Assembly (NCBI RefSeq): GCF_051097895.1
Contig: NZ_CP142525.1
Span: forward strand, 1,710,001-1,742,000
DNA length: 32,000 nucleotides
From: Psychrobacter sp. HD31
GTDB lineage: Bacteria > Pseudomonadota > Gammaproteobacteria > Pseudomonadales > Moraxellaceae
Direction of reading: 5' to 3'
In this document: positions 5,864 through 29,352 of the stretch, in pieces
Numbering within the stretch: the stretch's first letter is position 1
How the letters are laid out: the number at the start of each line of letters is the position of its first letter
The notes under the pieces: generated by a model
What the model was told of the DNA's origin: nothing
Seen by the model: the letters and a program-made list of their open reading frames with translations, nothing else
The model's database searches: none
Translations under genes and position numbers: made by a program

Positions 5864-7417
5864 TTAGTATAAATCTTGATGATAACGTTGCTCTTTCACT
5901 AAATCCTCTATAAACGTTTTCGCTTCATCATCATTTAAATCACCATGCTTTTTAGCAATCATCATCAGCGCATTATCAATGGGTTTGCTTAAGTTTGTTT
6001 TACTGCCACAAACATATATTTCTGCCTTATTTTCAAGTAACCTCCAAACAACCGCTCCTTGTTGCAGTAAAGTATCTTGTACGTAGATTTTTTCTACCTG
6101 ATCACGAGAGAAGGCGGTATAAAGCGCAGTTAATCGTCCATCTTCAACACATTTTTTCAGTTCTGTTTGATACAAAAAGTCTTTATCATGATGGCGTTCA
6201 CCAAAAAACAGGTGAGTTTCGCCCAATCTTTTTTGTGCTAAAAAACCTAAATAAGGCGCAATACCAGTGCCAGCACCAATCATAATAATAGGGGTAGAAC
6301 TTTTGTTTGGTAAATGAAAATGTGCATTAGAACGTACATAAACTTTAGCGGTTACTTCTGACTGTGTATTATCCAGTGCATGACACAAAAAATAACTGCC
6401 ACTACCAAAATAGTCATAGCCTTCACGTTGATACTGAACTTCTCGCACACACAAACGAACCCTATTGGGAGATTGTTTGCCGCACGAGGCGATGGAGTAT
6501 GCTCTGGGCAATTGGGTAGACAAGATATCGAGTAGTGCCTCAAAAGGCATATTTTCAGGTGTGCAATAGTCAGTTAGCAAATCGGCAACATCACGCCCAT
6601 AGCTGTAATCTGCTAATGTTTTGGCAGCACTCATTTTGGTTAAGGCTTTTAGCGCTTTGTTTTTTGTATGTTTGGCAACGGCACGTATTAAGGGTTTGTT
6701 TAGTTGCCGAAGTTCTTTTTCACTTAATAATAATTTTTGCGTATCGCTTAGGTCTTTATAAAAGGTGTTAATACGAGTAATGCTATTTTTATTAGCAGGT
6801 GGCATTAAATATAATAAATCGCCTGCTTGATAGTTCATACCACTGCCTGCAATATTTATATGAATATCATAAACAGGGAACTCGCTTTGGTTAATACGTT
6901 TTACCGTTTCAATAGGGGCAATATAGTTTTGTTGTTCATTGTAGGCTTTAACCTGTAAGTCAAGCTGTTTCAGTGCGCTGCTATCGCCCTCAAAATACAA
7001 AGTGAGGGCATTTGACCATTGCTCAAAAAAATCTTGATAGCAAGTATCAGCATCAACACGCTTACCAATAGAGGTTGCTTTAAGCTGCTGTAACTTTTCA
7101 TCAATATCAATGGTAAATCCGCAAAATTTGGGGTAGGAGACATCCCCTAGACCAAAAATTGCAAATTGACAATCAATTTGACCGTCATAGTCATAAATGG
7201 TGTCAAAAAATTTACTGGCATTACCAGGGGGTTCGCCATCACCAAAACTACTGCTGATAATGAGCAAGATATCTTGTGAGGTTAGCTCTGTGATAACTAT
7301 ATCGTTTAATGGAGATAAAACAGGTTGGTAAGCTAACAGCTTGTCTTTTAATTGCAGTGCAATGTTTTTTGCATTGCCTGATTCTGAGCCGTAAGCGATA
7401 TGAATAGAATGAGACAT
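5864..7417 (-). CDS. CysJ-like diflavin reductase (flavodoxin domain fused to an FAD/NAD(P)H ferredoxin-reductase-type domain)
   Basis: FMN module IHIAYGSESGNA...SSSFGDGEPPGNA...FAIFGLGD. FAD motif RAYSIASC. NAD(P)H motif MIGAGTGIAPYLGF...YVCGS and a C-terminal aromatic tail (HQDLY). At 517 aa it is shorter than E. coli CysJ. Confidence 0.85.
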   Translation of the reverse strand: MSHSIHIAYGSESGNAKNIALQLKDKLLAYQPVLSPLNDIVITELTSQDILLIISSSFGDGEPPGNASKFFDTIYDYDGQIDCQFAIFGLGDVSYPKFCGFTIDIDEKLQQLKATSIGKRVDADTCYQDFFEQWSNALTLYFEGDSSALKQLDLQVKAYNEQQNYIAPIETVKRINQSEFPVYDIHINIAGSGMNYQAGDLLYLMPPANKNSITRINTFYKDLSDTQKLLLSEKELRQLNKPLIRAVAKHTKNKALKALTKMSAAKTLADYSYGRDVADLLTDYCTPENMPFEALLDILSTQLPRAYSIASCGKQSPNRVRLCVREVQYQREGYDYFGSGSYFLCHALDNTQSEVTAKVYVRSNAHFHLPNKSSTPIIMIGAGTGIAPYLGFLAQKRLGETHLFFGERHHDKDFLYQTELKKCVEDGRLTALYTAFSRDQVEKIYVQDTLLQQGAVVWRLLENKAEIYVCGSKTNLSKPIDNALMMIAKKHGDLNDDEAKTFIEDLVKEQRYHQDLY

Positions 7418-7499: not shown

Positions 7500-7916
7500 T
7501 TAGTCGTAATATTCATCAAACTGCTCTTTGGCAAATTCAATACTGTCATAGTCGCCCATTAAGTCATTAATAACACGGCGAACACTGATGTATTCAACAA
7601 TTTCACCCGCTTCATTTTTTATTGGCTGAACTGTCGTATCAACTACATATAAAACACCGCCTTTGCCACAGTTGGGTACAACCCCTGTCCAAATCTCACC
7701 TGCTTGGATGGTGTCCCACATATCTTTATAGACTTCTTTTGCAATAGCAGGGTGACGGACGATATTGTGAGGTTGACCAACCAACTCTTCACGAGTAAAT
7801 CCAGTTAATGTACAAAATAAGTCATTTACATAAGTAATAACGCCTTGTAAATCGGTTTTAGATACCACAAATGCGTCTTTGACTGCTTTTAGTACTTCGT
7901 TGTCGATATTTTCCAT
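7500..7916 (-). CDS. Stand-alone Aer-type PAS domain protein (no transmembrane, HAMP or output domain)
   Basis: SKTDLQGVITYVNDLFCTLTGFTREELVGQPHNIVRHPAIAKEVYKDMWDTIQAGEIWTGVV is colinear with the remembered FAD-binding PAS of E. coli Aer (TTDLQSYITHANDTF..GQPHNMVRHPDMPKAAFADMW..GEPWSGIV). The start is set at ATG 7916, with AAGGAG (7923-7928) 6 nt upstream. The track start at 7949 is a TTG. Confidence 0.8.
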   Translation of the reverse strand: MENIDNEVLKAVKDAFVVSKTDLQGVITYVNDLFCTLTGFTREELVGQPHNIVRHPAIAKEVYKDMWDTIQAGEIWTGVVPNCGKGGVLYVVDTTVQPIKNEAGEIVEYISVRRVINDLMGDYDSIEFAKEQFDEYYD

Positions 7917-7996
7917 GACTTGCTCCTTATGGGCTTGGGTTGAGTCCAAAGCAATAGTTGCTATGGTTTTAAAAGTAAAAACTTAATCTAGTGTTT

Positions 7997-8021
7997 AAAC
8001 ATACATTTAAAATGTATGTTT
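7997..8021. promoter_or_regulatory. Putative NsrR operator: perfect 12-1-12 palindrome in the divergent PAS/nsrR promoter region
   Basis: AAACATACATTT-A-AAATGTATGTTT. The inner 11-1-11 half-site AACATACATTT matches the E. coli NsrR half-site AANATGCATTT at 10 of 11 positions. A degenerate second copy (ATACATTTTAAATAT) follows at 8026-8040. Confidence 0.6.
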
Positions 8022-9223: not shown

Positions 9224-10111
9224 ATGCCATCATTTTTAGTAGAAAATGCTATAAAAATAAACCACCAGCAAGCACGTTTTTATCAAACCAAAGCAACAAC
9301 AAATCACAAGCCATCGGCTCATTTTTATGGTGGGAATGGGTTTGCAGTTGGTGCTTATGAGCCGTTACTAAAGCAATTAGCAGAGGATTTTGACATTAGC
9401 AGTTTGGCAATGCGAGGTTATTGGTATGACAAGCCAACCAATAAAAAACTGACTCGCATTGATGATGCTAAGATGTTGATTGCGTTTATTGAAAAAACTT
9501 ATGATGCGCCTATTATTGGTATTGGACATTCACAAGGGGCAACCGCCACCGCACTTGCTGCTGCCATGCGACCTGATTTGTTTTCGGCCATTTATCTTGT
9601 AGAACCAGTCACGTTTACCAAATCACAAACTTTGCTTTACAACCTGATACCAGATTTTATCAAGCTTAAAAAAGAGCCGTTTAAAAGCACCTTAAAAAAA
9701 CAAAAATACTGGCAAAGTCATAAAGCGTATTATCAGTATTTACGAGGGCATAGGGCTTATAAACGAGTGAATGACGACTTATTGCATATTTATGCTAAAA
9801 ATAGCCTGACTAAAAGATGTGATGGTGGTGAGGGGTTTGAGTTGCTATTTAGCCCAGAGCAAGAGTTAGCCAGTTATTTTGGTACCCCATTTATTAATGA
9901 CGCTTTAAAAACGTTAAATAAAACAGATGTTTCCTACCATATTATTAAGGGTAAGCCCAGTTTGTTTATTAATGAAAAGGTACGCAAAAGCTGGCAAAAA
10001 TTTGTTCCTAAAAATGCCATAACCGTACTGCCAGAGTATGGGCATTTGTTGCCTATTGAAGCACCCAAACTTGTTGCTAAAATCATTAGTGAGCAAAACA
10101 CTCAGCTCTAA
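9224..10111 (+). CDS. Alpha/beta-fold hydrolase
   Basis: Nucleophile elbow GIGHSQGA, a late His in the PEYGHLLPIE context, and the RBS AAGGAAG before the ATG. Confidence 0.75.
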   Translation: MPSFLVENAIKINHQQARFYQTKATTNHKPSAHFYGGNGFAVGAYEPLLKQLAEDFDISSLAMRGYWYDKPTNKKLTRIDDAKMLIAFIEKTYDAPIIGIGHSQGATATALAAAMRPDLFSAIYLVEPVTFTKSQTLLYNLIPDFIKLKKEPFKSTLKKQKYWQSHKAYYQYLRGHRAYKRVNDDLLHIYAKNSLTKRCDGGEGFELLFSPEQELASYFGTPFINDALKTLNKTDVSYHIIKGKPSLFINEKVRKSWQKFVPKNAITVLPEYGHLLPIEAPKLVAKIISEQNTQL

Positions 10112-19896: not shown

Positions 19897-19925
19897 CCAT
19901 CATGCAAAATGCATGGTGGTTTTTC
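19897..19925 (+). terminator. Rho-independent terminator after nqrM
   Basis: CCATCATGCA, loop AAA, TGCATGGTGG (one G-U pair), followed by TTTTT. Confidence 0.75.
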
Positions 19926-19963
19926 ACGTTTAAGTGGTAAATTTTTTAAATCAAGCATCGACT

Positions 19964-21250
19964 ATGAATAATAACAATATCGTAACCACCAAAAACACCA
20001 GTTTAGCCTTTGTGTGCATTGCCATTATTTTAGTGGCAGTCAATATGCGCTCACCCATTGTGTTAGTTGGTTCGATTGCACCGGTTATCGAGCAAGCTTT
20101 AGGCATTAGCCAGTTAGAGATAGGGTGGTTGGGTGCAATCCCTATGCTTTCATTTGCTTTTGGGGCATTAGTATCGGCAAAGTTTAGCAAATGGTTTGGC
20201 ATTCACAATTTATTACCTGTGATGATCTTGTTGTTAGCCCTTGGCATGGTTTTGCGAGTGTTTGCTATTGGTTGGTGGTGGTTTTTTGCTGGTACGGCTA
20301 TTTTGTCGCTTGCCATTGGTTTTTTAAATACCATCACGATGCCGGCGATTAAACAGTTAGCACCAAAAAACATTCCATTAGTAACGGGTTTATACAGCCT
20401 TGCAATGACCATTATGGCAGGGTTGGTGGCTGGCATTGTGTTACCGATGAGTGATTTATTGGGTTGGCGTTTGGCAACAGGCGTTTGGGCAGTGCTTAGT
20501 GTGTTTGCATTCGTGTTTTGGTGGCAGCTGCGCCCAAATTTAGTGTTGGATTATCAGCAACAACAACACTCAAATCGCACATTAAGCGATGGCAACAGTC
20601 CGCAAGTGGTCATCCAAAAGCGGCAACAAATGCCAAACTCCAAACATAACAAAAGTATGTGGCAAACGCCCCTGGCATGGTGGTTAGCGATATTTTTAGG
20701 GCTGCAATCGCTTATGTACTATCTAGTTGCCAGTTTTTTGCCCTCTATCTGGGCGAGTAAAGGCTTAAGTTTGATACAAGCAGGGCAGCTGGCAATGCTA
20801 TTTCAGCTGATGGCACCCATTGCAATTTTATTGTTAACTTGGGTAATGAGCCGTAAAGACCATGCACGAACGATGGCGATGTTAGCCTCTATACTCATAG
20901 CGATGGGTGCAGCAGGCATGGCATTTGGGCGGTTTGATGTTAACCCCTTATTTTGGGCAAGTGTGTGGACAATCTGTGCAGGTTTTGGTGCCTCATTGGT
21001 TTTTACATTAACGCTTATGCTCATTAACCTACGTACTTATGATACGGTGCAAGCCAGTGAGTTATCTAGCATGTCGCAAGCCGTTGGTTATACCATTGCC
21101 ATGGCAGGACCATTGGGTGCGGGTTGGTTGCATGAGGTAAGCGGTGATTGGCACCTTCCTCTTACTGTGCTGACGATATTGATGCTGATAAATATTGGTT
21201 TTGCTTGGGCGATTAGTGGCAGAGTCATGATTGATGGCAAGCCATTTTAG
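19964..21250 (+). CDS. MFS transporter (CynX/YeaN-like)
   Basis: About 12 hydrophobic spans in two halves, separated by a Q-rich central loop (DYQQQQHSNRT...). The start is uncertain: ATG 19964 is preferred over GTG 19934. Confidence 0.7.
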   Translation: MNNNNIVTTKNTSLAFVCIAIILVAVNMRSPIVLVGSIAPVIEQALGISQLEIGWLGAIPMLSFAFGALVSAKFSKWFGIHNLLPVMILLLALGMVLRVFAIGWWWFFAGTAILSLAIGFLNTITMPAIKQLAPKNIPLVTGLYSLAMTIMAGLVAGIVLPMSDLLGWRLATGVWAVLSVFAFVFWWQLRPNLVLDYQQQQHSNRTLSDGNSPQVVIQKRQQMPNSKHNKSMWQTPLAWWLAIFLGLQSLMYYLVASFLPSIWASKGLSLIQAGQLAMLFQLMAPIAILLLTWVMSRKDHARTMAMLASILIAMGAAGMAFGRFDVNPLFWASVWTICAGFGASLVFTLTLMLINLRTYDTVQASELSSMSQAVGYTIAMAGPLGAGWLHEVSGDWHLPLTVLTILMLINIGFAWAISGRVMIDGKPF

Positions 21251-22980: not shown

Positions 22981-23919
22981 ATGAGTAAAACCAGAGCCGT
23001 TAACCCACGCCAACCAAAATCAATACCTAAAAATGATGAGCCAGAATATGTGTTTGATTTTCGTCAAGCCATGCTGGCACGTGGGCTATCTGTGCGCACT
23101 CGCAATGCCTATGTAAAAGACTTAACCAGCTGCCAAGCCACTAGTCTAAAGGCATTACCAAACTGGCAAGATAAAGATGTGATTGCCTGCTTAAGCCAGC
23201 TGAGTAGTGAGGGCAAAACCGCACGCACCCAAGCCAGAATGCTATCAAGCTTACGCCAGTTTTTTTTGTGGTTAGTTAATACCGAGCAAAGGAAAGACAA
23301 CCCTTGCGAAAAAATTAAAACCCCAAAGCTTGGGCGTGCCCTGCCAAAAGACTTAAGCGAGGCAGATGTAGAAAACCTGCTACTTGCGCCAGATATGAGT
23401 ACATCACTGGGTTTAAGAGACAAAGCCATGTTAGAGGTGTTGTATGCCTGTGGTTTGCGTGTGTCTGAGCTGATGAACCTATCGTTAGAACAGGTTAATT
23501 TAAATGCTGGTGTACTTAGAGTCACCGGCAAAGGCAATAAAACACGGCTGGTGCCATTGGGGGAGTATGCCAATGAGGCATTAGAAAACTATTTAACTCA
23601 TGCCCGTAATGATTTGGTTGCACACCTTAAGTCTGGTGATTGCCAAGCTGTATTTTTAACCGCTCAGGGTGGTTATATGACTCGGCAAAACTTTTGGTAT
23701 ATGATTAAAAAATATGCCAAATTGGCAGGCATACAAAAAGATTTATCACCGCATAGCTTACGCCACGCCTTTGCGACTCACTTACTTAACCATGGGGCAG
23801 ATTTGCGTAGTGTGCAGTTGTTGCTTGGGCATAGCGATTTGTCTACCACACAAATATACACGCATGTTGCAACGGCACGTTTGCAGGCATTGCATGAGGC
23901 ACATCATCCAAGAGGGTAA
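22981..23919 (+). CDS. xerD: Tyrosine recombinase XerD
   Basis: Colinear with the remembered E. coli XerD: LRDKAMLEVLYACGLRVSEL, VTGKGNKTRLVPLGE, HSLRHAFATHLLNHGADLRSVQLLLGHSDLSTTQIYTHVA, and the C-terminal HHPR. Confidence 0.9.
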   Translation: MSKTRAVNPRQPKSIPKNDEPEYVFDFRQAMLARGLSVRTRNAYVKDLTSCQATSLKALPNWQDKDVIACLSQLSSEGKTARTQARMLSSLRQFFLWLVNTEQRKDNPCEKIKTPKLGRALPKDLSEADVENLLLAPDMSTSLGLRDKAMLEVLYACGLRVSELMNLSLEQVNLNAGVLRVTGKGNKTRLVPLGEYANEALENYLTHARNDLVAHLKSGDCQAVFLTAQGGYMTRQNFWYMIKKYAKLAGIQKDLSPHSLRHAFATHLLNHGADLRSVQLLLGHSDLSTTQIYTHVATARLQALHEAHHPRG

Positions 23920-23925
23920 TGGGGG

Positions 23926-24198
23926 TTATTCTTCAAACCCAAATAAGTCGCCACTTTCACCCCAATCATCAAAATCTATCTCCAACTGCTCTTTTTGGCG
24001 TTGTCTCATTTGTTCAATACGTTTTTTGCGTCCAACAATGAGCCTTAACACTTCTCGCCTTTGCTCATCTGTCATTTGTAGCCACATTTGACGCTCTGGA
24101 CGGCTGCGCAAACAGCCAAAGCAAAATCCTTTTTTATTGCTTTGGCATACACCCACGCAGGGGTTATCAATCGAGAAGAGTTCAATTTGGTTGGTCAT
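23926..24198 (-). CDS. DUF1289 (YdhL-like) cysteine-motif protein
   Basis: NPCVGVCQSNKKGFCFGCLRSRPERQMW is the C-x3-C...C-x2-C signature of DUF1289. The gene is convergent with xerD, with 6 nt between the stops. Confidence 0.7.
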   Translation of the reverse strand: MTNQIELFSIDNPCVGVCQSNKKGFCFGCLRSRPERQMWLQMTDEQRREVLRLIVGRKKRIEQMRQRQKEQLEIDFDDWGESGDLFGFEE

Positions 24199-24355: not shown

Positions 24356-24973
24356 ATGCACATTATTTATTTACACGGGTTTGATAATACCAGTAACTCT
24401 ATTAAAGGTGGGCTTTTGGTAGACTATATCCAAAAAAGTCATCCAAACCATCAAGTGCATTGCCCTGATTTAAATTTAAAACCTGCCGAGGTGTTGGCTA
24501 AGGTCACTAAGTTGATTAATGAGCTTAGTCAAACCGATAAGGTCGTGTTGGTAGGCAGCTCGTTAGGTGGTTATTTTTCTACGCATTTAAGTAACCAGCT
24601 TGGTTGCCCAGCGTTATTATTAAACCCAAGTGTTGCACCACACACCACGCTTACTCGTTTTTTTGCCGATGGTAAAACCTATGGCGCTGATGATGAGGTA
24701 TTTTATACGACGGTTGGTGATTGGAATGTCACTTATGGCGATATGCGCTGGGTTGCAGACAATCAGTTATTAACGGTTAACCACCCAAATAAAATTGCAG
24801 TTTGGCTAAAAACCGCTGATGAGGTTCTTAATTATCAAGTGGCAGAAAGTTTTTACGGTAGCAATGGCGTTAAGCAATTAATAATCCATGAGGGGGGCGA
24901 CCACCGCATTGCAGACTTCGATGAGCATTTGGATATGGTTTTGGAGGTTTTAAATAATCTTGTAAGTGGGTGA
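24356..24973 (+). CDS. yqiA: Esterase YqiA (UPF0227 alpha/beta hydrolase)
   Basis: IIYLHGFDNTSNS...VLVGSSLGGYFSTHLS...LLLNPSV.P...GGDH is colinear with the remembered E. coli YqiA. Confidence 0.85.
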   Translation: MHIIYLHGFDNTSNSIKGGLLVDYIQKSHPNHQVHCPDLNLKPAEVLAKVTKLINELSQTDKVVLVGSSLGGYFSTHLSNQLGCPALLLNPSVAPHTTLTRFFADGKTYGADDEVFYTTVGDWNVTYGDMRWVADNQLLTVNHPNKIAVWLKTADEVLNYQVAESFYGSNGVKQLIIHEGGDHRIADFDEHLDMVLEVLNNLVSG

Positions 24974-24977
24974 TTTT

Positions 24978-24990
24978 AGTTAATGGTTTA
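24978..24990. repeat. Left copy of the 13-bp direct repeat AGTTAATGGTTTA flanking the yqiA-parE insertion
   Basis: Exact match to 27283-27295. It begins 5 nt after the yqiA stop codon. Confidence 0.6.
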
Positions 24991-25054
24991 AATGTTAAGA
25001 AACAAGCAATTTATCAAACCTTAATATATTTTTGTTAGGTGTTTCTATTAAATA

Positions 25055-25765
25055 TCAAAATGGTAAATCAACAGTAATATTTTCATTTATTTCAGTAGGG
25101 ACTATAAAGTCAATATTTCTTAGATGTTCTAAGATATCCCTATAAAGAGCCATCGATTTCTCTAAATACTCTTTGGGCAAGTCATCCGATTTGAGATAAA
25201 ATTTATTCTCAACGTCATAAAATTCAATATTCTTTCCAAAATCATTTAATAACTTCTTTTTATCTTGTTCATCTTTATATGTGGAATTATCATGAATAAT
25301 CTTATTTCTTAGTTGCTGAAACTGGCCCAATCTTGGTTTATGTTTATTTAATAAGTCTTCACTTAGTCCCGTTGTTAATTTTAAATAATTAAGTCCCGAT
25401 TTAATGTAATCTCGTCCATTTAGAGAGGAAATATCGAGTTTGCTTTTAGTTTTTTCTTGAATTAATTTACTAAGTTGAAATAATTGATTTTCAAAAAATG
25501 AATGTACCAAAGTAATCGACGAATGGTAATAAAATGAGTTTATAGATCGAAGTTGAGTTTCATAAAGGTCATTTACACGAGTTTGTTCTTCTGGTTTTTC
25601 TTCTATTTCTTGATTTAAAGAATATTCAAGCTTATCTATTGTTGTTTCAACTCTATTAGAATTTAAATCAAAATACTTCAATAGGTAATTAAATTCCTTT
25701 TGTAATTTATTTTCATAGCTTTCAAATGAAAATCTTTTTTGTATAGTATTTTTATATGTAAACAT
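25055..25765 (-). CDS. HEPN-like domain protein (R-N-x3-H motif); function unknown, putative RNase or abortive-infection-type toxin
   Basis: 236 aa, predicted helical and K/E/N-rich. The C-terminal half carries QQLRNKIIHDN, the canonical R[NHD]xxxH HEPN signature. There is no signal peptide and no adjacent MNT or antitoxin ORF. Confidence 0.55.
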   Translation of the reverse strand: MFTYKNTIQKRFSFESYENKLQKEFNYLLKYFDLNSNRVETTIDKLEYSLNQEIEEKPEEQTRVNDLYETQLRSINSFYYHSSITLVHSFFENQLFQLSKLIQEKTKSKLDISSLNGRDYIKSGLNYLKLTTGLSEDLLNKHKPRLGQFQQLRNKIIHDNSTYKDEQDKKKLLNDFGKNIEFYDVENKFYLKSDDLPKEYLEKSMALYRDILEHLRNIDFIVPTEINENITVDLPF

Positions 25766-25879
25766 TTATCTCAATATTTGGTAGCCTACGACAAACGACT
25801 TTTATATGTTTTGTACGGCTGTAATTTAAAGCAACTTGTCAAATCATGTTATTAGTTATTTAACGTAAAAGCAAGCCAA

Positions 25880-25899
25880 GTAGGGTGCGTTCCATGCAC
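25880..25899 (+). repeat. REP element (GTAG-type hairpin), downstream flank of the RayT gene
   Basis: GTAGGGTGCGTTCCATGCAC. Its reverse complement matches 26501-26520 at 18 of 20 positions. It has an internal GTGCGT/ATGCAC stem. Confidence 0.65.
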
Positions 25900-25910
25900 A
25901 GTTCTAAAAA

Positions 25911-26454
25911 CTACTCTAACTTATCTGACATACTATTATCAAATATAACACCTTGTCCCCAATCACTCGTATATACTCCTTTGTTAACATAACGATGAAA
26001 ACTTGAATATTGCCAATCTCTTACATGTGTCACTAAGCCATGTTTTACAGGATTGTAATGTAAATAATCAATATGTTTTCTGAAGTCGGCAGCATCTTTT
26101 ATTAGATGTTCATAAAAGCGACGTTGAAATATACCTTTTTCATTTCTTTTAACTTTTGAATAGCTTAATTCTTCTATAGGTAAATGATATTGAGGGCATA
26201 ATTTGGTTGTTCTACGTTTTATTTGTGACCAGCATTGGCTGTAATTGGTATTATTTCCCAAATACAATGTAGGTGGTCTGGTAATTGCACCCACATGCAA
26301 TTATTTTAAATGGATAGTTTTTTTGTGTTTCTTTGATACTTGCACGTAATGCTTTTAAAAAGTCAGGATTGGTAAATATTTTTCTACGTTGATAAGACAC
26401 CAAGGTAAAAAAGTAGGTTGCTCCTTGCGTATATGACCGTATGTAACGTGACAT
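25911..26454 (-). pseudogene. REP-associated tyrosine transposase (RayT/TnpA-REP, IS200/IS605 Y1 family), disrupted by two small frameshifts
   Basis: The N-terminal ORF (MSRYIRSYTQGATYFFT...PFKIIA) and the C-terminal ORF (NNTNYSQCWSQIKRR...RRFYEHLIKDAADFRKHIDYLHYNPVKHGLV..DWQYSSF) are colinear with the remembered E. coli RayT (YafM). The HUH motif is encoded in the third frame as WVQLPDHLHCIW (26258-26293). Confidence 0.8.
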
Positions 26455-26500
26455 TTTTTGTTCAATTAAGTCCTTTTGTTATGGGCATTATAGAGCATTG

Positions 26501-26520
26501 GTGCGTGGGACGCACCCTAC
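26501..26520 (-). repeat. REP element (GTAG-type hairpin), upstream flank of the RayT gene, inverted relative to 25880-25899
   Basis: The plus strand reads GTGCGTGGGACGCACCCTAC, so the minus strand reads GTAGGGTGCGTCCCACGCAC. It forms a perfect GTGCGT-ggg-ACGCAC hairpin. Confidence 0.65.
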
Positions 26521-26625
26521 TTACTTAACAGCTCAAGGTTAGGCTAAATAAACAACTTGAGATTGCAAAAGTTGTTGATGTTTAACAACCCCAAAACAAA
26601 TATACATATCTATTTTTAGTAAATA

Positions 26626-27210
26626 TTACTTAGCCTGAATATTAGGTAATTCAATATTTCCAACTTTTTTTACAAGATTTGCCTTAGTCGTAACAATTGT
26701 ATTCAAAAAAGTATTTTTCTCTTCCTCATTTGATACATAGTTGCGATACGAGTAGGCGTATAGAACTAAATAATTTCCAGATTCATTTTTCTCATTTCTG
26801 TATCTATAAATATTCCATTCATAAATATTTCCACTACTTAAGATGAATTCAAGAACTATTTCTTTCCCATACTCAAACTTCTCGTAACTGACAATGGGAT
26901 TAATGCTTTTCCAACCTTCTAACTCATTAATTTTTCCATTAGCGACATATATTGCTGGAAAATCTCCTTTTATAGCTTCTACCATTAGCATTTTTTCATA
27001 CTCTGGCAAGCTGTCATTTTTTCTTAAATATTCTTGCTTATAATATTCTTTTGATGGATGAGAACTCCATTTAAGTTCGTATACTTCTCCATTAAATTCA
27101 ATTTCTTTTCCTATAGATAAATATTCAGTTGGTTCAGAGTTAGCGTTTGCAGTTGTGATAAACAATACACTTAAAAAACTAACTGCAAAAAATATATAAA
27201 TGTTTTTCAT
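26626..27210 (-). CDS. Hypothetical secreted protein
   Basis: Type I signal peptide MKNIYIFFAVSFLSVLFITTANA|NS. The mature part is rich in Y/E/N/K, with no motif I recognise. Confidence 0.55.
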   Translation of the reverse strand: MKNIYIFFAVSFLSVLFITTANANSEPTEYLSIGKEIEFNGEVYELKWSSHPSKEYYKQEYLRKNDSLPEYEKMLMVEAIKGDFPAIYVANGKINELEGWKSINPIVSYEKFEYGKEIVLEFILSSGNIYEWNIYRYRNEKNESGNYLVLYAYSYRNYVSNEEEKNTFLNTIVTTKANLVKKVGNIELPNIQAK

Positions 27211-27282
27211 GATTAAAATGTCTGTTTGAATGTTTGCTAACGTCTCGATAAACGATATGATGAATGTTTATTTGGAGTTATA

Positions 27283-27295
27283 AGTTAATGGTTTA
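27283..27295. repeat. Right copy of the 13-bp direct repeat AGTTAATGGTTTA
   Basis: Exact match to 24978-24990. It lies 158 nt upstream of the parE ATG. Confidence 0.6.
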
Positions 27296-27372
27296 TTTAA
27301 CAATATTATTTGTTATTTAACCAAATATCAAGCTAAAAGATAATACCAGCCAATATCTATAAATCCCCACAA

Positions 27373-27401
27373 TTGGTTATGTCGCCTTTTTTAAGTATAA
27401 T
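27373..27401 (+). promoter_or_regulatory. Candidate sigma-70 promoter for parE
   Basis: TTGGTT (27373-27378), a 17-nt spacer, then TATAAT (27396-27401), about 52 nt upstream of the parE ATG. Confidence 0.45.
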
Positions 27402-27453
27402 GGATTAATTGTTTGATATAGATGTATCGTAGGACTATAAAAATAGGACACCC

Positions 27454-29352
27454 ATGAGCCAAAATCAAAACTACAACGCCCAATCTTTAGAAGTATTAGA
27501 AGGGCTTGAGCCAGTGCGTCGTCGTCCAGGGATGTACACAGAAACCACACGCCCAAATCACCTAGCACAAGAAGTGATAGACAACTCGGTAGATGAGGCG
27601 TTGGCAGGCTATGCCAAAAGCATAAAAGTGCAACTGCATGATGATGGCTCGTTGTCGGTAGAAGATGACGGACGAGGCATGCCAACCGATATTCATCCAG
27701 AGTTTGGGCAATCGGGCATTGAACTTATTTTAACTCGTTTGCACGCAGGCGGTAAGTTTTCTACCAGCAACTATCAAGTGTCTGGCGGTTTGCATGGTGT
27801 GGGTATCTCCGTAGTTAATGCCTTATCTACCCGTGTAGAAGTGACCGTATGGCGAGGTGGCACTCAATATGACATGGCGTTTGAAAACGGCACACCCGTT
27901 ACGCCACTTAACGAGTCTGTTAGCTCTAATAAACGCAAACGTGGTACAAAAGTGCGTTTTTGGGCAGATGAGCAGTTTTTTGACTCGCCAAAATTTAGCG
28001 TAAAACAATTAAAGCACAACCTAAAAGCCAAGGCAGTACTGTCGGCTGGGTTGTCTATCGAGTTTGTTGACCATATCAATGATGAAAAAATAGTTTGGCA
28101 GTTTAGCGATGGCGTAATTGAATATTTAAATGAACAACTCGATGGGTTAGAAACCTTACCATCAGAGCCATTTTATCATGACTACGAAGCAGCCAAAGGG
28201 GAGCGAGCAGGGGCAACTTTTGCCATTAGCTGGTTACCAGAAGGTGGTACACCAATACAAGAAAGCTATGTTAACTTAATCCCAACGGCACAAGGTGGTA
28301 CGCATGTTAACGGATTGCGTACAGGTATTTTAGAAGCCTTGCGAGAGTTTTGCGAAATCCATAATTTATTGCCACGCAATATAAAACTGACAGGCGAAGA
28401 TGTATGGGATGGCGTTAACTATATATTATCGCTTAAATTTTCGGAGCCACAATTTTCTGGGCAAACCAAAGAACGTTTATCTAGCCGAGAGGCAGCAGGG
28501 GCAGTGCAGGCCATTGCAAAAGATGCGTTTAGTTTGTGGTTAAACCAGCATGCCGATATGGGCACACAAATTGCTGAGCTTGCCATTAGCAAGGCAGGCA
28601 AACGCCTAAAAAGTGCTAAAAAAGTGGCACGTAAAAAAATTACGCAAGGTCCTGCCTTGCCCGGTAAACTTGCCGACTGTAAAGGCGACTTAAAAGAAGG
28701 TGCAGAGCTGTTTTTGGTAGAGGGGGACTCTGCTGGAGGCAGTGCCAAGCAAGCACGTGACCGCCATTTTCAGGCAATTTTGCCATTGCGAGGTAAAATT
28801 TTAAATACCTGGGAGGTATCTTCTGATACGGTGCTATCTAGTCAAGAAATCCACGACATCGCCATAGCGATAGGTGTTGACCCAGCCAGTGATGATTTGA
28901 GTGAGTTGCGTTATGACAAAGTGTGTATTTTAGCCGATGCGGACTCAGATGGCTTGCACATTGCCACTTTGATTTGTGCCTTGTTTGTTAAACACTTTCC
29001 TACCCTAATTGAAGAAGGGCACTTATATGTAGCCATGCCACCTTTGTATCGTGTGGATATTGGTAAAGAGGTGCATTATGCCCTTGATGAACCAGAGTTA
29101 GAGCAAATACTCGCTAATGCGCCAAAAAACAAAAAGCAGTCCATCACTCGCTTTAAAGGGCTGGGTGAAATGGATGCCGACCAGCTTAGAGAAACCACCA
29201 TGAACCCAGATACCCGCCGATTGGTGCAGCTAGACTTAGATGACTTAAATCACACCAGTGAGGTGATGGACATGCTACTTGCCAAAAAACGCTCGTCTGA
29301 CCGTAAATCTTGGTTAGAACATAAAGGTGATTTAGCTGAGCTGGCTGTTTAA
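27454..29352 (+). CDS. parE: DNA topoisomerase IV subunit B
   Basis: 632 aa type IIA topoisomerase B subunit: LEGLEPVRRRPGMYT, the GHKL ATPase region EVIDNSVDEA...DDGRGMP...GGLHGVG, the Toprim motifs EGDSAGGSA and ILADADSDGLHI, and the C-terminal RFKGLGEM. Its size and position next to yqiA favour ParE over GyrB. Confidence 0.9.
   Translation: MSQNQNYNAQSLEVLEGLEPVRRRPGMYTETTRPNHLAQEVIDNSVDEALAGYAKSIKVQLHDDGSLSVEDDGRGMPTDIHPEFGQSGIELILTRLHAGGKFSTSNYQVSGGLHGVGISVVNALSTRVEVTVWRGGTQYDMAFENGTPVTPLNESVSSNKRKRGTKVRFWADEQFFDSPKFSVKQLKHNLKAKAVLSAGLSIEFVDHINDEKIVWQFSDGVIEYLNEQLDGLETLPSEPFYHDYEAAKGERAGATFAISWLPEGGTPIQESYVNLIPTAQGGTHVNGLRTGILEALREFCEIHNLLPRNIKLTGEDVWDGVNYILSLKFSEPQFSGQTKERLSSREAAGAVQAIAKDAFSLWLNQHADMGTQIAELAISKAGKRLKSAKKVARKKITQGPALPGKLADCKGDLKEGAELFLVEGDSAGGSAKQARDRHFQAILPLRGKILNTWEVSSDTVLSSQEIHDIAIAIGVDPASDDLSELRYDKVCILADADSDGLHIATLICALFVKHFPTLIEEGHLYVAMPPLYRVDIGKEVHYALDEPELEQILANAPKNKKQSITRFKGLGEMDADQLRETTMNPDTRRLVQLDLDDLNHTSEVMDMLLAKKRSSDRKSWLEHKGDLAELAV

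Follow-up and report, generated by a model that had tools for sequence, protein, structure and literature searches.

Between yqiA and parE, the Psychrobacter sp. HD31 genome holds a 2,480-nt gap, which we studied within a window of 32,000 nt (contig NZ_CP142525.1, positions 1,710,001 to 1,742,000; all HD31 coordinates below count from the first base of this window). The two flanking genes have the same orientation and every gap gene, that is ORF236, a split RayT (REP-associated tyrosine transposase; REP, repetitive extragenic palindrome) and ORF194, lies on the minus strand, as an original prediction made from the sequence had described. We lean, with modest confidence, towards explaining this islet as a short, decayed and integrase-less group of integron-type cassettes, a relic resembling attC-site clusters that have no integron-integrase (CALINs), which would occupy a lineage-specific array site 4 nt past the yqiA stop. 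Under this explanation HD31 would have kept two cassettes only, with a dead native REPtron between them at the clade-specific array site, and their recombination sites (S1, U1, U2 and S3) would have degenerated. The imported genes would by now be fixed in place, because no integrase lies nearby, and an exact 13-mer found at both edges of the gap may be the best-preserved part of two degenerate inter-cassette units rather than a target duplication.

The yqiA-parE junction in Psychrobacter and in the HD31 clade

A parE-based scan yielded 80 other Psychrobacter species (loci L001-L080), in 79 of which DUF1289, yqiA and parE are adjacent with a spacer of median 101 nt (range 83-386) and the order DUF1289-yqiA-parE-acyltransferase-SDR (a short-chain dehydrogenase/reductase, enoyl-ACP-reductase-like) is kept. 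The 80th, Psychrobacter sp. I-STPA10 (L072), has no yqiA, and its DUF1289 gene stands ~180 nt from parE (7561-8001). None of the 79 measurable species carries a relative of ORF236, RayT or ORF194 at this locus. By this comparison the tight junction is ancestral in Psychrobacter, and because it is, the HD31 gap is a real insertion, of recent acquisition. The inserted DNA is compositionally foreign, with a windowed GC of 0.25-0.33 over 24950-27500 vs 0.40-0.50 on either side, a gene GC of 0.259 for ORF236 and 0.287 for ORF194 against 0.400 +/- 0.030 for 27 flanking genes, and a GC at third codon positions (GC3) of 0.19-0.23 for the islet genes against 0.354 +/- 0.047, such that islet-gene GC and GC3 fall 2-5 standard deviations under the flanking values. 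The original prediction, which had proposed an insertion into a conserved junction and had judged the DNA AT-rich from hand counts, is borne out on both points.

The junction varies further among the closest relatives of HD31, which are two metagenome contigs, L095 (PDWI01006581.1) and L096 (PDWJ01005993.1). Their YqiA proteins are 93% and 92% identical in amino acids to that of HD31, compared with 42-50% in the 79 Psychrobacter species, and nucleotide identity is 87% across xerD-DUF1289-yqiA. Homology between L095 and HD31 stops 4 nt past the yqiA stop (24977); beyond it, L095 has at least 5 kb of unrelated 29%-GC DNA with six or more open reading frames (ORFs), all on the minus strand and separated by spacers of 59-156 nt. 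This array (L095 5619-10609) encodes an S-adenosylmethionine-dependent methyltransferase, a PF00144 serine-hydrolase/beta-lactamase-like protein (383 aa) and a small protein with a signal-peptide-like N-terminus, and it continues past the end of the examined stretch. L096 diverges inside yqiA at codon ~194 (ending ...DEHLRL*; L096 5570-5672) and passes into unrelated DNA of normal GC starting gene MTNQTLNAQIEALL, not parE. Judged from these alignments, HD31, L095 and L096 are three states of one junction, and the hotspot that had been proposed is seen in L095, a close relative whose different island starts, past the yqiA stop, at the very same nucleotide. Scanning GTDB representatives with yqiA turned up no closer genome, and no close relative with an empty yqiA-parE site was found.

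Relatives' spacers also allow the native part of the gap to be located. A profile of 54 of them has its sole noncoding match in the window at 27377-27409 (E 0.0017), the parE -10 region, so the TTGGTT-17-TATAAT promoter that had been assigned to parE lies in the only stretch matching the conserved spacer; a general promoter and terminator scan stayed at background (19 promoter-like sites vs 18 expected). The profile matches only this promoter stretch, and the idea that U1, U2 or the 13-mer is a duplicated native spacer is not supported. The relatives have in common an imperfect palindrome, GACGACATTATATGACG, at the start of the yqiA-parE spacer and ~55 nt upstream of the parE -10, which could be an operator, and nothing in the HD31 spacer matches it significantly.

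Some further observations concern the upstream side. In HD31 (22981-24198 region), L095 and L096 the DUF1289 gene and yqiA are immediately preceded by xerD, which was not found in the examined DNA of any of the 80 other species (four with 8 kb upstream of parE). Many Psychrobacter assemblies (among L002-L080) have a contig end 0.1-5 kb upstream of the DUF1289 gene, which suggests a repeated element nearby in those genomes.

Two probable cassette genes, attC-like sites and a broken REPtron

ORF194 gives the clearest link to cassette arrays. It has an N-terminal signal peptide, and a precomputed match to PF27161 (HI_0983) exists for the identical HD31 protein and for all 68 of its 68 homologues; the earlier description as an orphan secreted protein needs correcting, for ORF194 is not an orphan. 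Homologues with a source name all come from Flavobacteriia, the best being that of Aestuariivivens insulae (78% aa identity), whose DNA is 83.5% identical over 601 nt, and DNA homology is confined to the ORF plus ~30 nt upstream and ~25 nt downstream. One homologue, P0014, occurs as the same identical protein in several unrelated neighbourhoods, each bounded by repeats starting RYYYAAC and ending GTTRRRY, with neighbours that diverge straight after GTT. When these contexts are aligned, the conserved unit starts at G|TTAGCAAACAT upstream of the ORF and ends in a ~133-nt repeat with GCTAAC at its start and CAC-GTT at its end, beyond which the neighbours differ. HD31 homology with the cassette in L099-L103 and L094 begins at AC|GTTAGCAAACAT (27235-27243), preceded by unrelated sequence, so that the 5' boundary of ORF194 in HD31, ACGTTAGCAAACAT (27235-27243), is the cassette's own G|TTRRRY boundary, a correspondence that holds for the ORF194 5' boundary only. 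These alignments show ORF194 to be of a type that circulates as a cassette between ~133-nt attC-like repeats in Flavobacteriia-type arrays. Its product is probably a periplasmic protein of unassigned role; the AlphaFold2 (AF2) model (pLDDT 87.6) has an alpha/beta fold with weak DcrB/LpqN-like fold matches, and PADLOC, PHROGs and NCBIfam gave no usable match.

The repeats themselves have the structure expected of recombination sites. In contigs holding the HI_0983 cassette the ~133-nt repeat recurs at every gene boundary, and its bottom strand folds far better than shuffles (z -3.45). Eight attC-like sites from related arrays follow a common design, RYYYAAC-spacer-stem...stem-spacer-GTTRRRY, and RNAalifold pairs their bottom strands at 18 positions, 8 of them with compensatory changes, with several conserved G.T pairs. 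Integron attC sites are built in this way, with a stem bounded by RYYYAAC and GTTRRRY (Cury et al. 2016, PMC4889954). An ad hoc covariance model (CM) built from the 8 sites, CM R1, matches the ~133-nt repeats around ORF194-type cassettes at E about 1e-15 and matches L095 spacers at 6487-6583, 7040-7138 and 9912-10007 (E 1e-10 to 1e-14). In turn, a profile made from the L095 sites picks up, in L102 and L103, the site lying upstream of the HI_0983 cassette (E 4e-5), a match that links the array in the Psychrobacter clade to the pool containing the ORF194-type cassette. As a separate observation, the cassette adjoining the HI_0983 cassette in L099 (1647-2930) encodes a TIR plus pentapeptide-repeat protein and the two are bounded by the same ~133-nt attC-like repeat, so defence-type cargo occurs in donor-type arrays.

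Applied to the HD31 gap alone, CM R1 has its top three matches at U2 (27233-27322; 12.3 bits, the best in the gap), S1 (24976-25039; 12.0 bits, E 0.14) and U1 (25788-25872; 8.2 bits), with E 0.12-0.79, all of them between genes and on the strand expected for minus-strand cassettes; S3 reaches only 4.9 bits (E 3.8). In the S1 alignment the 13-mer falls on the R box. A strict RYYYAAC...GTTRRRY regular expression gave no candidate in the gap. We regard the case for degenerate attC-like units in HD31 as one of moderate strength, short of a demonstration.

ORF236 (Table 1) belongs to a rare family, with five close homologues among 5.8e9 proteins and 297 distant representatives in a full HMMER search. 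Of the close relatives, one alone has a source name, Marinifilum fragile, and the contig of another carries Bacteroidota-type gliding genes. In a 60-sequence alignment reaching down to ~20% identity the invariant columns are M1, E92, R153, N154 and H158, of which R153-N154-H158 form the HEPN R-x4-H motif; 9 of the 60 relatives weakly match PF18735 (HEPN_RiboL-PSP; best E 3e-4) and isolated family members match HEPN_Swt1, AbiU2 or Apea. The HEPN-like call made earlier for this gene is thereby credible. The AF2 model is essentially all helical (pLDDT 84.7), and in fold it matches one predicted protein, uncharacterised and encoded by a Myoviridae metagenome sequence (E 4.9e-4, TM 0.55-0.60). ORF236 itself has no match in Pfam and none usable in PADLOC, PHROGs or NCBIfam, and a search of the PDB gave nothing by sequence and no significant fold match (best Csm6, E 0.67). 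Homologues have as neighbours a Dam methylase together with RhuM, or else a protein whose faint Pfam match is nucleoside deoxyribosyltransferase-like. The product is probably a HEPN RNase acting as a toxin or anti-phage effector. Anti-phage systems are often encoded by chromosomal integron cassettes (bioRxiv 10.1101/2024.07.02.601686), which makes a defence role for ORF236 plausible. Around one homologue (L097) we see ACCTAAC-31 nt-GTTAGGT upstream, ACCTAAC just after the stop and an adjoining IS110-family element; around another (L086), GCCTCCTAAT...GTTAGGAGGC upstream; and HD31 keeps the ACCTAAC common to both (25034-25040, minus strand) 14 nt past the ORF236 stop. These R boxes and the IS110 neighbour are only suggestive of mobile ORF236-type cassettes elsewhere. 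With its rare family, HEPN signature, defence-like neighbourhoods and phage-protein fold match, ORF236 is a lead for anti-phage work.

The third gap gene has a different source. The RayT halves at 26251-26454 and 25911-26300 match NF047646 (E 1e-10 and 1.5e-26), and a three-frame translation places the N-terminal part, the HUH motif (LPDHLHCIW) and the C-terminal part in three different frames, with the HUH motif and the C-terminal YxHxNPV region still present. The claim that RayT is broken and flanked by REPs thus holds, and the two REPs are the only ones in the 32 kb. Its closest intact homologues are Psychrobacter RayTs (66-70%); those of Psychrobacter DM8 and M13 occupy another conserved locus, beside ligA-zipA-smc, with the same GTAG-tagged REP family and no neighbour related to ORF194 or ORF236. 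By these relationships RayT and its REPs constitute a native-type REPtron, now a pseudogene, between the two cassettes, and the gap genes are, by the same kind of comparison, two Bacteroidota-type imports and one native-type element, a mosaic cargo because the relatives of ORF194, ORF236 and RayT differ in origin. REPtrons reportedly do not move as units, and accessory genes can replace them, as with hicAB in E. coli (PMC3333891). At the ligA locus, DM8 (L090 6773-7426) carries, between ligA and the REPs downstream of RayT, an extra orphan gene of 217 aa that M13 (L091) lacks, so the flank of the native REPtron is also a variable spot.

As had been stated for the islet, no integrase is present. 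Apart from XerD and the RayT pseudogene, the 32 kb hold no integrase or transposase, the other ORFs of at least 100 aa outside the gap being housekeeping genes, and the gap has no room for an integrase pseudogene. The xerD gene (22981-23919), 1 kb upstream, is of the housekeeping type, scoring 353 bits against TIGR02225 (cutoff 330) and 148 against the integron-integrase model (cutoff 265). It had prompted us to consider a Xer/dif module, which we rejected given this type and a gap without any dif-like site at up to 3 mismatches.

Table 1. Features of the yqiA-parE interval of Psychrobacter sp. HD31 and its two flanks
Feature	Position	Strand	Remarks
yqiA (UPF0227 esterase-like)	24356-24973	+	left native flank; PF05728, E 1.4e-32
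S1, weak attC-like unit after ORF236	24976-25039	+	contains 13-mer copy 1; GTTAGGT/ACCTAAC box 25034-25040
13-mer copy 1, AGTTAATGGTTTA	24978-24990	+	exact match
ORF236, rare all-helical protein	25055-25765	-	candidate RNase/toxin/defence gene; invariant E92, R153, N154, H158
U1, 108-nt unit directly upstream (coding strand) of ORF236	25773-25879	+	direct repeat of U2
REP, GTAG then palindrome	25880-25899	+	same family as REPs at RayT loci of Psychrobacter DM8 and M13
RayT pseudogene	25911-26454	-	two frameshifts around HUH motif
REP, inverted orientation	26501-26520	-	other side of RayT
S3, spacer after ORF194	26523-26625	-	possible remnant of that cassette's attC; ends GTTAAGT beside REP
ORF194, secreted protein, PF27161 (HI_0983)	26626-27210	-	integron-type cassette gene, Flavobacteriia type
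U2, 108-nt unit upstream of ORF194	27229-27336	+	repeat of U1; box GTTAGCA 27235-27241 (minus strand)
13-mer copy 2, AGTTAATGGTTTA	27283-27295	+	exact match, inside U2
Native parE promoter region	27373-27409	+	TTGGTT 27373-27378, 17-nt spacer, TATAAT 27396-27401
parE	27454-29352	+	right native flank; Pfam domains; 87-89% aa identity to 80 Psychrobacter species

Public proteins identical to the gap genes are VH441_07730, VH441_07735 and VH441_07740 (Psychrobacter sp. HD31). An Rfam search gave no relevant match, and the sole match in a plasmid database was a short RayT-like stretch in Methylomonas. Elsewhere in the window HD31 carries a major facilitator superfamily (MFS) transporter gene (ORF 19934-21250, PF07690, GC 0.44), in place of which L095 and L096 have ~180 nt between flanks 87-88% identical; with the indel spanning 19925-21246, this is a second strain-specific indel in the window.

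Edge repeats and competing explanations

The exact 13-mer, AGTTAATGGTTTA, is present after the yqiA stop and again near parE as had been noted, with no third copy in the 32 kb. The proposal that it marks a target-site duplication or att-like junction is not supported. Empty sites were expected to show a short spacer with a single copy; the short spacer is there in all 79 species, and no exact copy occurs in those 79 spacers or in any of 96 related loci (~1.1 Mb). Copy 1 lies in variable DNA rather than in a conserved target, because homology between HD31 and L095 stops at 24977, one base short of it, and copy 2 lies within U2. In 0.4% of shuffles the left zone (81 nt) and the right zone (166 nt) have an exact word of 13 nt or more in common, and in about 33% a 13-nt repeat turns up somewhere in the 2.48-kb gap, so the 13-mer is unusual in position only, not in length. 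We also noted that it (24978-24993 region) equals the relatives' parE -10 region, GTTATAATGGTTTA, with a 2-nt gap, and resembles the HD31 -10 region, AGTATAATGGATTA at 27393-27406; kinship with the relatives' -10 region was set aside, as a ranking of all gap 13-mers found an equally good chance match inside ORF236. Short exact repeats in AT-rich DNA are, by this example, not to be read as target-site duplications in annotation. The larger repeat is firmer, with 62 of 108 columns identical between U1 and U2 (one gap; Smith-Waterman score reached by 0/300 shuffles), a best part or core, D1, matching at 27 of 34 nt (0/300 shuffles reach this), and each copy immediately 5' (coding strand) of an imported ORF. 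The case for S1 as a third copy is marginal (p 0.04), with the signal coming from the 13-mer itself.

Several points weigh against a decayed cassette cluster in HD31. The CM R1 matches in the gap are individually not significant over the whole window (E 1.5-9.9), and an AT-rich CM R1 may favour AT-rich DNA. S1, U1, U2 and S3 fold no better than shuffles (z -0.6 to +1.1), and profile hidden Markov models (HMMs) made from the attC-like sites find no match in the window. An integron integrase was not seen in any array examined, which is why the term integron-type is based on how the sites are built and how the cassettes behave. L095, a metagenome contig, covers the yqiA side of the junction only. 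The cassette reading explains only in part why the 13-mer lies at both edges (p about 0.004), and we know of no description of a REPtron inside a cassette array.

The main rival to the cassette cluster draws on some of the same points. Short Bacteroidota fragments, which in their donors happen to be cassettes, might have been taken up piecemeal by natural transformation and joined, at an intergenic site that is fragile, through illegitimate or homology-facilitated recombination, Psychrobacter itself having no integron machinery, and U1 and U2 would then be local duplications, for instance of a promoter-bearing stretch, made during uptake events. Moraxellaceae are naturally competent, the HD31 spacers have no foldable attC sites, profile HMMs find none and there is no IntI, U1 and U2 lie immediately 5' of the two ORFs in the manner of a shared leader, and L096 adds a third, unrelated breakpoint inside yqiA. 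We nevertheless judge this course rather unlikely, for ORF194 homology begins exactly at the cassette's G|TTRRRY boundary, the sister lineage L095 has a full array with strong attC-like sites from the same starting nucleotide, and the three best CM matches in the gap sit at the three expected positions on the expected strand.

A single non-autonomous element of ~2.3 kb, inserted once by a transposase or site-specific integrase acting in trans with the 13-mer as its target-site duplication or att core, is less probable still. It would account for a 13-mer placed no more than 5 nt from the yqiA stop and again ~70 nt past the final islet gene, and deleting the DNA between the copies leaves a 175-nt spacer, within the relatives' range. 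Against it, besides the missing 13-mer in empty sites and related loci, the left copy lies past the end of homology with the nearest relative and the right one within the 108-nt U2, whose other copy U1 is inside the islet, and a 13-nt repeat is ordinary for AT-rich DNA of such length. The phylogenetic origins of ORF236, ORF194 and RayT are three different ones, neither terminal inverted repeats nor an integrase or transposase came to light, and RayT is separate, native-type and inactivated. The original idea of a decayed or non-autonomous insertion at a hotspot, collecting accessory or defence cargo, thus survives as to the hotspot, the foreign DNA and possibly the defence cargo, and is not supported as to a single element with a target-site duplication or att junction. 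Finally, the three genes could be ancestral at this site and lost elsewhere, with the 13-mer a chance repeat, and the Psychrobacter type of RayT would suit that; we consider this refuted by their absence at the junction in all 79 measurable species, by strongly deviant composition and by the 83.5% nucleotide identity of ORF194 to a Flavobacteriaceae gene, and in DM8 and M13 it is the ligA locus that holds RayT. The outcome named earlier as contradicting an insertion, that relatives all carry the same genes at typical GC, is the reverse of what we found.

Comparison with known systems

Integrase-borne islands and transposons with direct-repeat junctions resemble the islet in their AT-rich foreign DNA, conserved intergenic site and direct repeat near both edges, whereas the islet lacks an integrase, a transposase and terminal inverted repeats, its repeat is not at empty sites and its content is mosaic. 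The REPtron (Nunvar 2010, PMC2817692; Ton-Hoang 2012, PMC3333891) is matched by a Y1 HUH gene with inverted GTAG-tagged REPs on both sides, of the same family as those of other Psychrobacter, but the HD31 RayT has two frameshifts and lies between yqiA and parE, not at the ligA-linked locus of DM8 and M13. ORF236 agrees with the RiboL-PSP-HEPN clade (PF18735) in being all-alpha, in its invariant R-N-x3-H with an upstream invariant Glu and in the defence-island-like neighbourhoods of its homologues, and departs from it in having no Pfam match or significant PDB fold, only weak matches in 9 of 60 relatives and no antitoxin partner or sensor gene next to it.

Sedentary chromosomal integrons, such as the Vibrio superintegron, share with HD31, L095 and L096 a fixed site with strain-variable cassettes, attC-like repeats that are similar within an array and plausible defence-type cargo (bioRxiv 10.1101/2024.07.02.601686); unlike them, the examined sequences have no intI or attI, the HD31 array is tiny and the cassette pool is apparently shared with Bacteroidota rather than host-specific. 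A tentative and bolder possibility, to which we attach clearly less belief than to the decayed cluster itself, is that the HD31 clade has an undescribed chromosomal cassette-array platform using the cassette and attC pool of marine Bacteroidota arrays, with HD31 as its stabilised end state and ORF236 as a new single-gene HEPN anti-phage cassette. If so, a platform drawing on a marine Bacteroidota pool would represent cross-phylum cassette traffic. The decayed cluster, if that explanation is true, would already mean that Bacteroidota-type arrays and a gammaproteobacterium share cassettes more than 80% identical in nucleotides, which bears on the phylum reach of the cassette pool. The site 3' of yqiA is a candidate variable locus in the HD31 clade.

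The closest likeness is to CALINs and their counterparts, single attC sites lacking integron-integrases (SALINs) (PMC4889954; bioRxiv 10.1101/2022.09.11.507474). In common with these, HD31 has same-strand, AT-rich genes of mostly unknown function with no intI nearby, one gene that starts at a G|TTRRRY boundary and homologues that are cassettes in real arrays; it differs in attC sites that are barely recognisable and give no hairpin signal, and in the REPtron pseudogene between the cassettes. With sites this faint (E 0.1-0.8 in the gap) the islet is probably below IntegronFinder detection. CALINs whose attC sites are very degenerate have been proposed as a stage on the way to stable retention of acquired cassettes (Cury et al. 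2016, PMC4889954), and CALINs and SALINs of small size occur commonly and can be produced when cassettes insert outside integrons (Loot et al., bioRxiv 10.1101/2022.09.11.507474). The HD31 islet, read by analogy, fits both suggestions, and if the decayed-cluster explanation is true it would offer a natural example of the step proposed in PMC4889954, in which captured cassettes turn into ordinary genes of the chromosome with the loss of their recombination sites.

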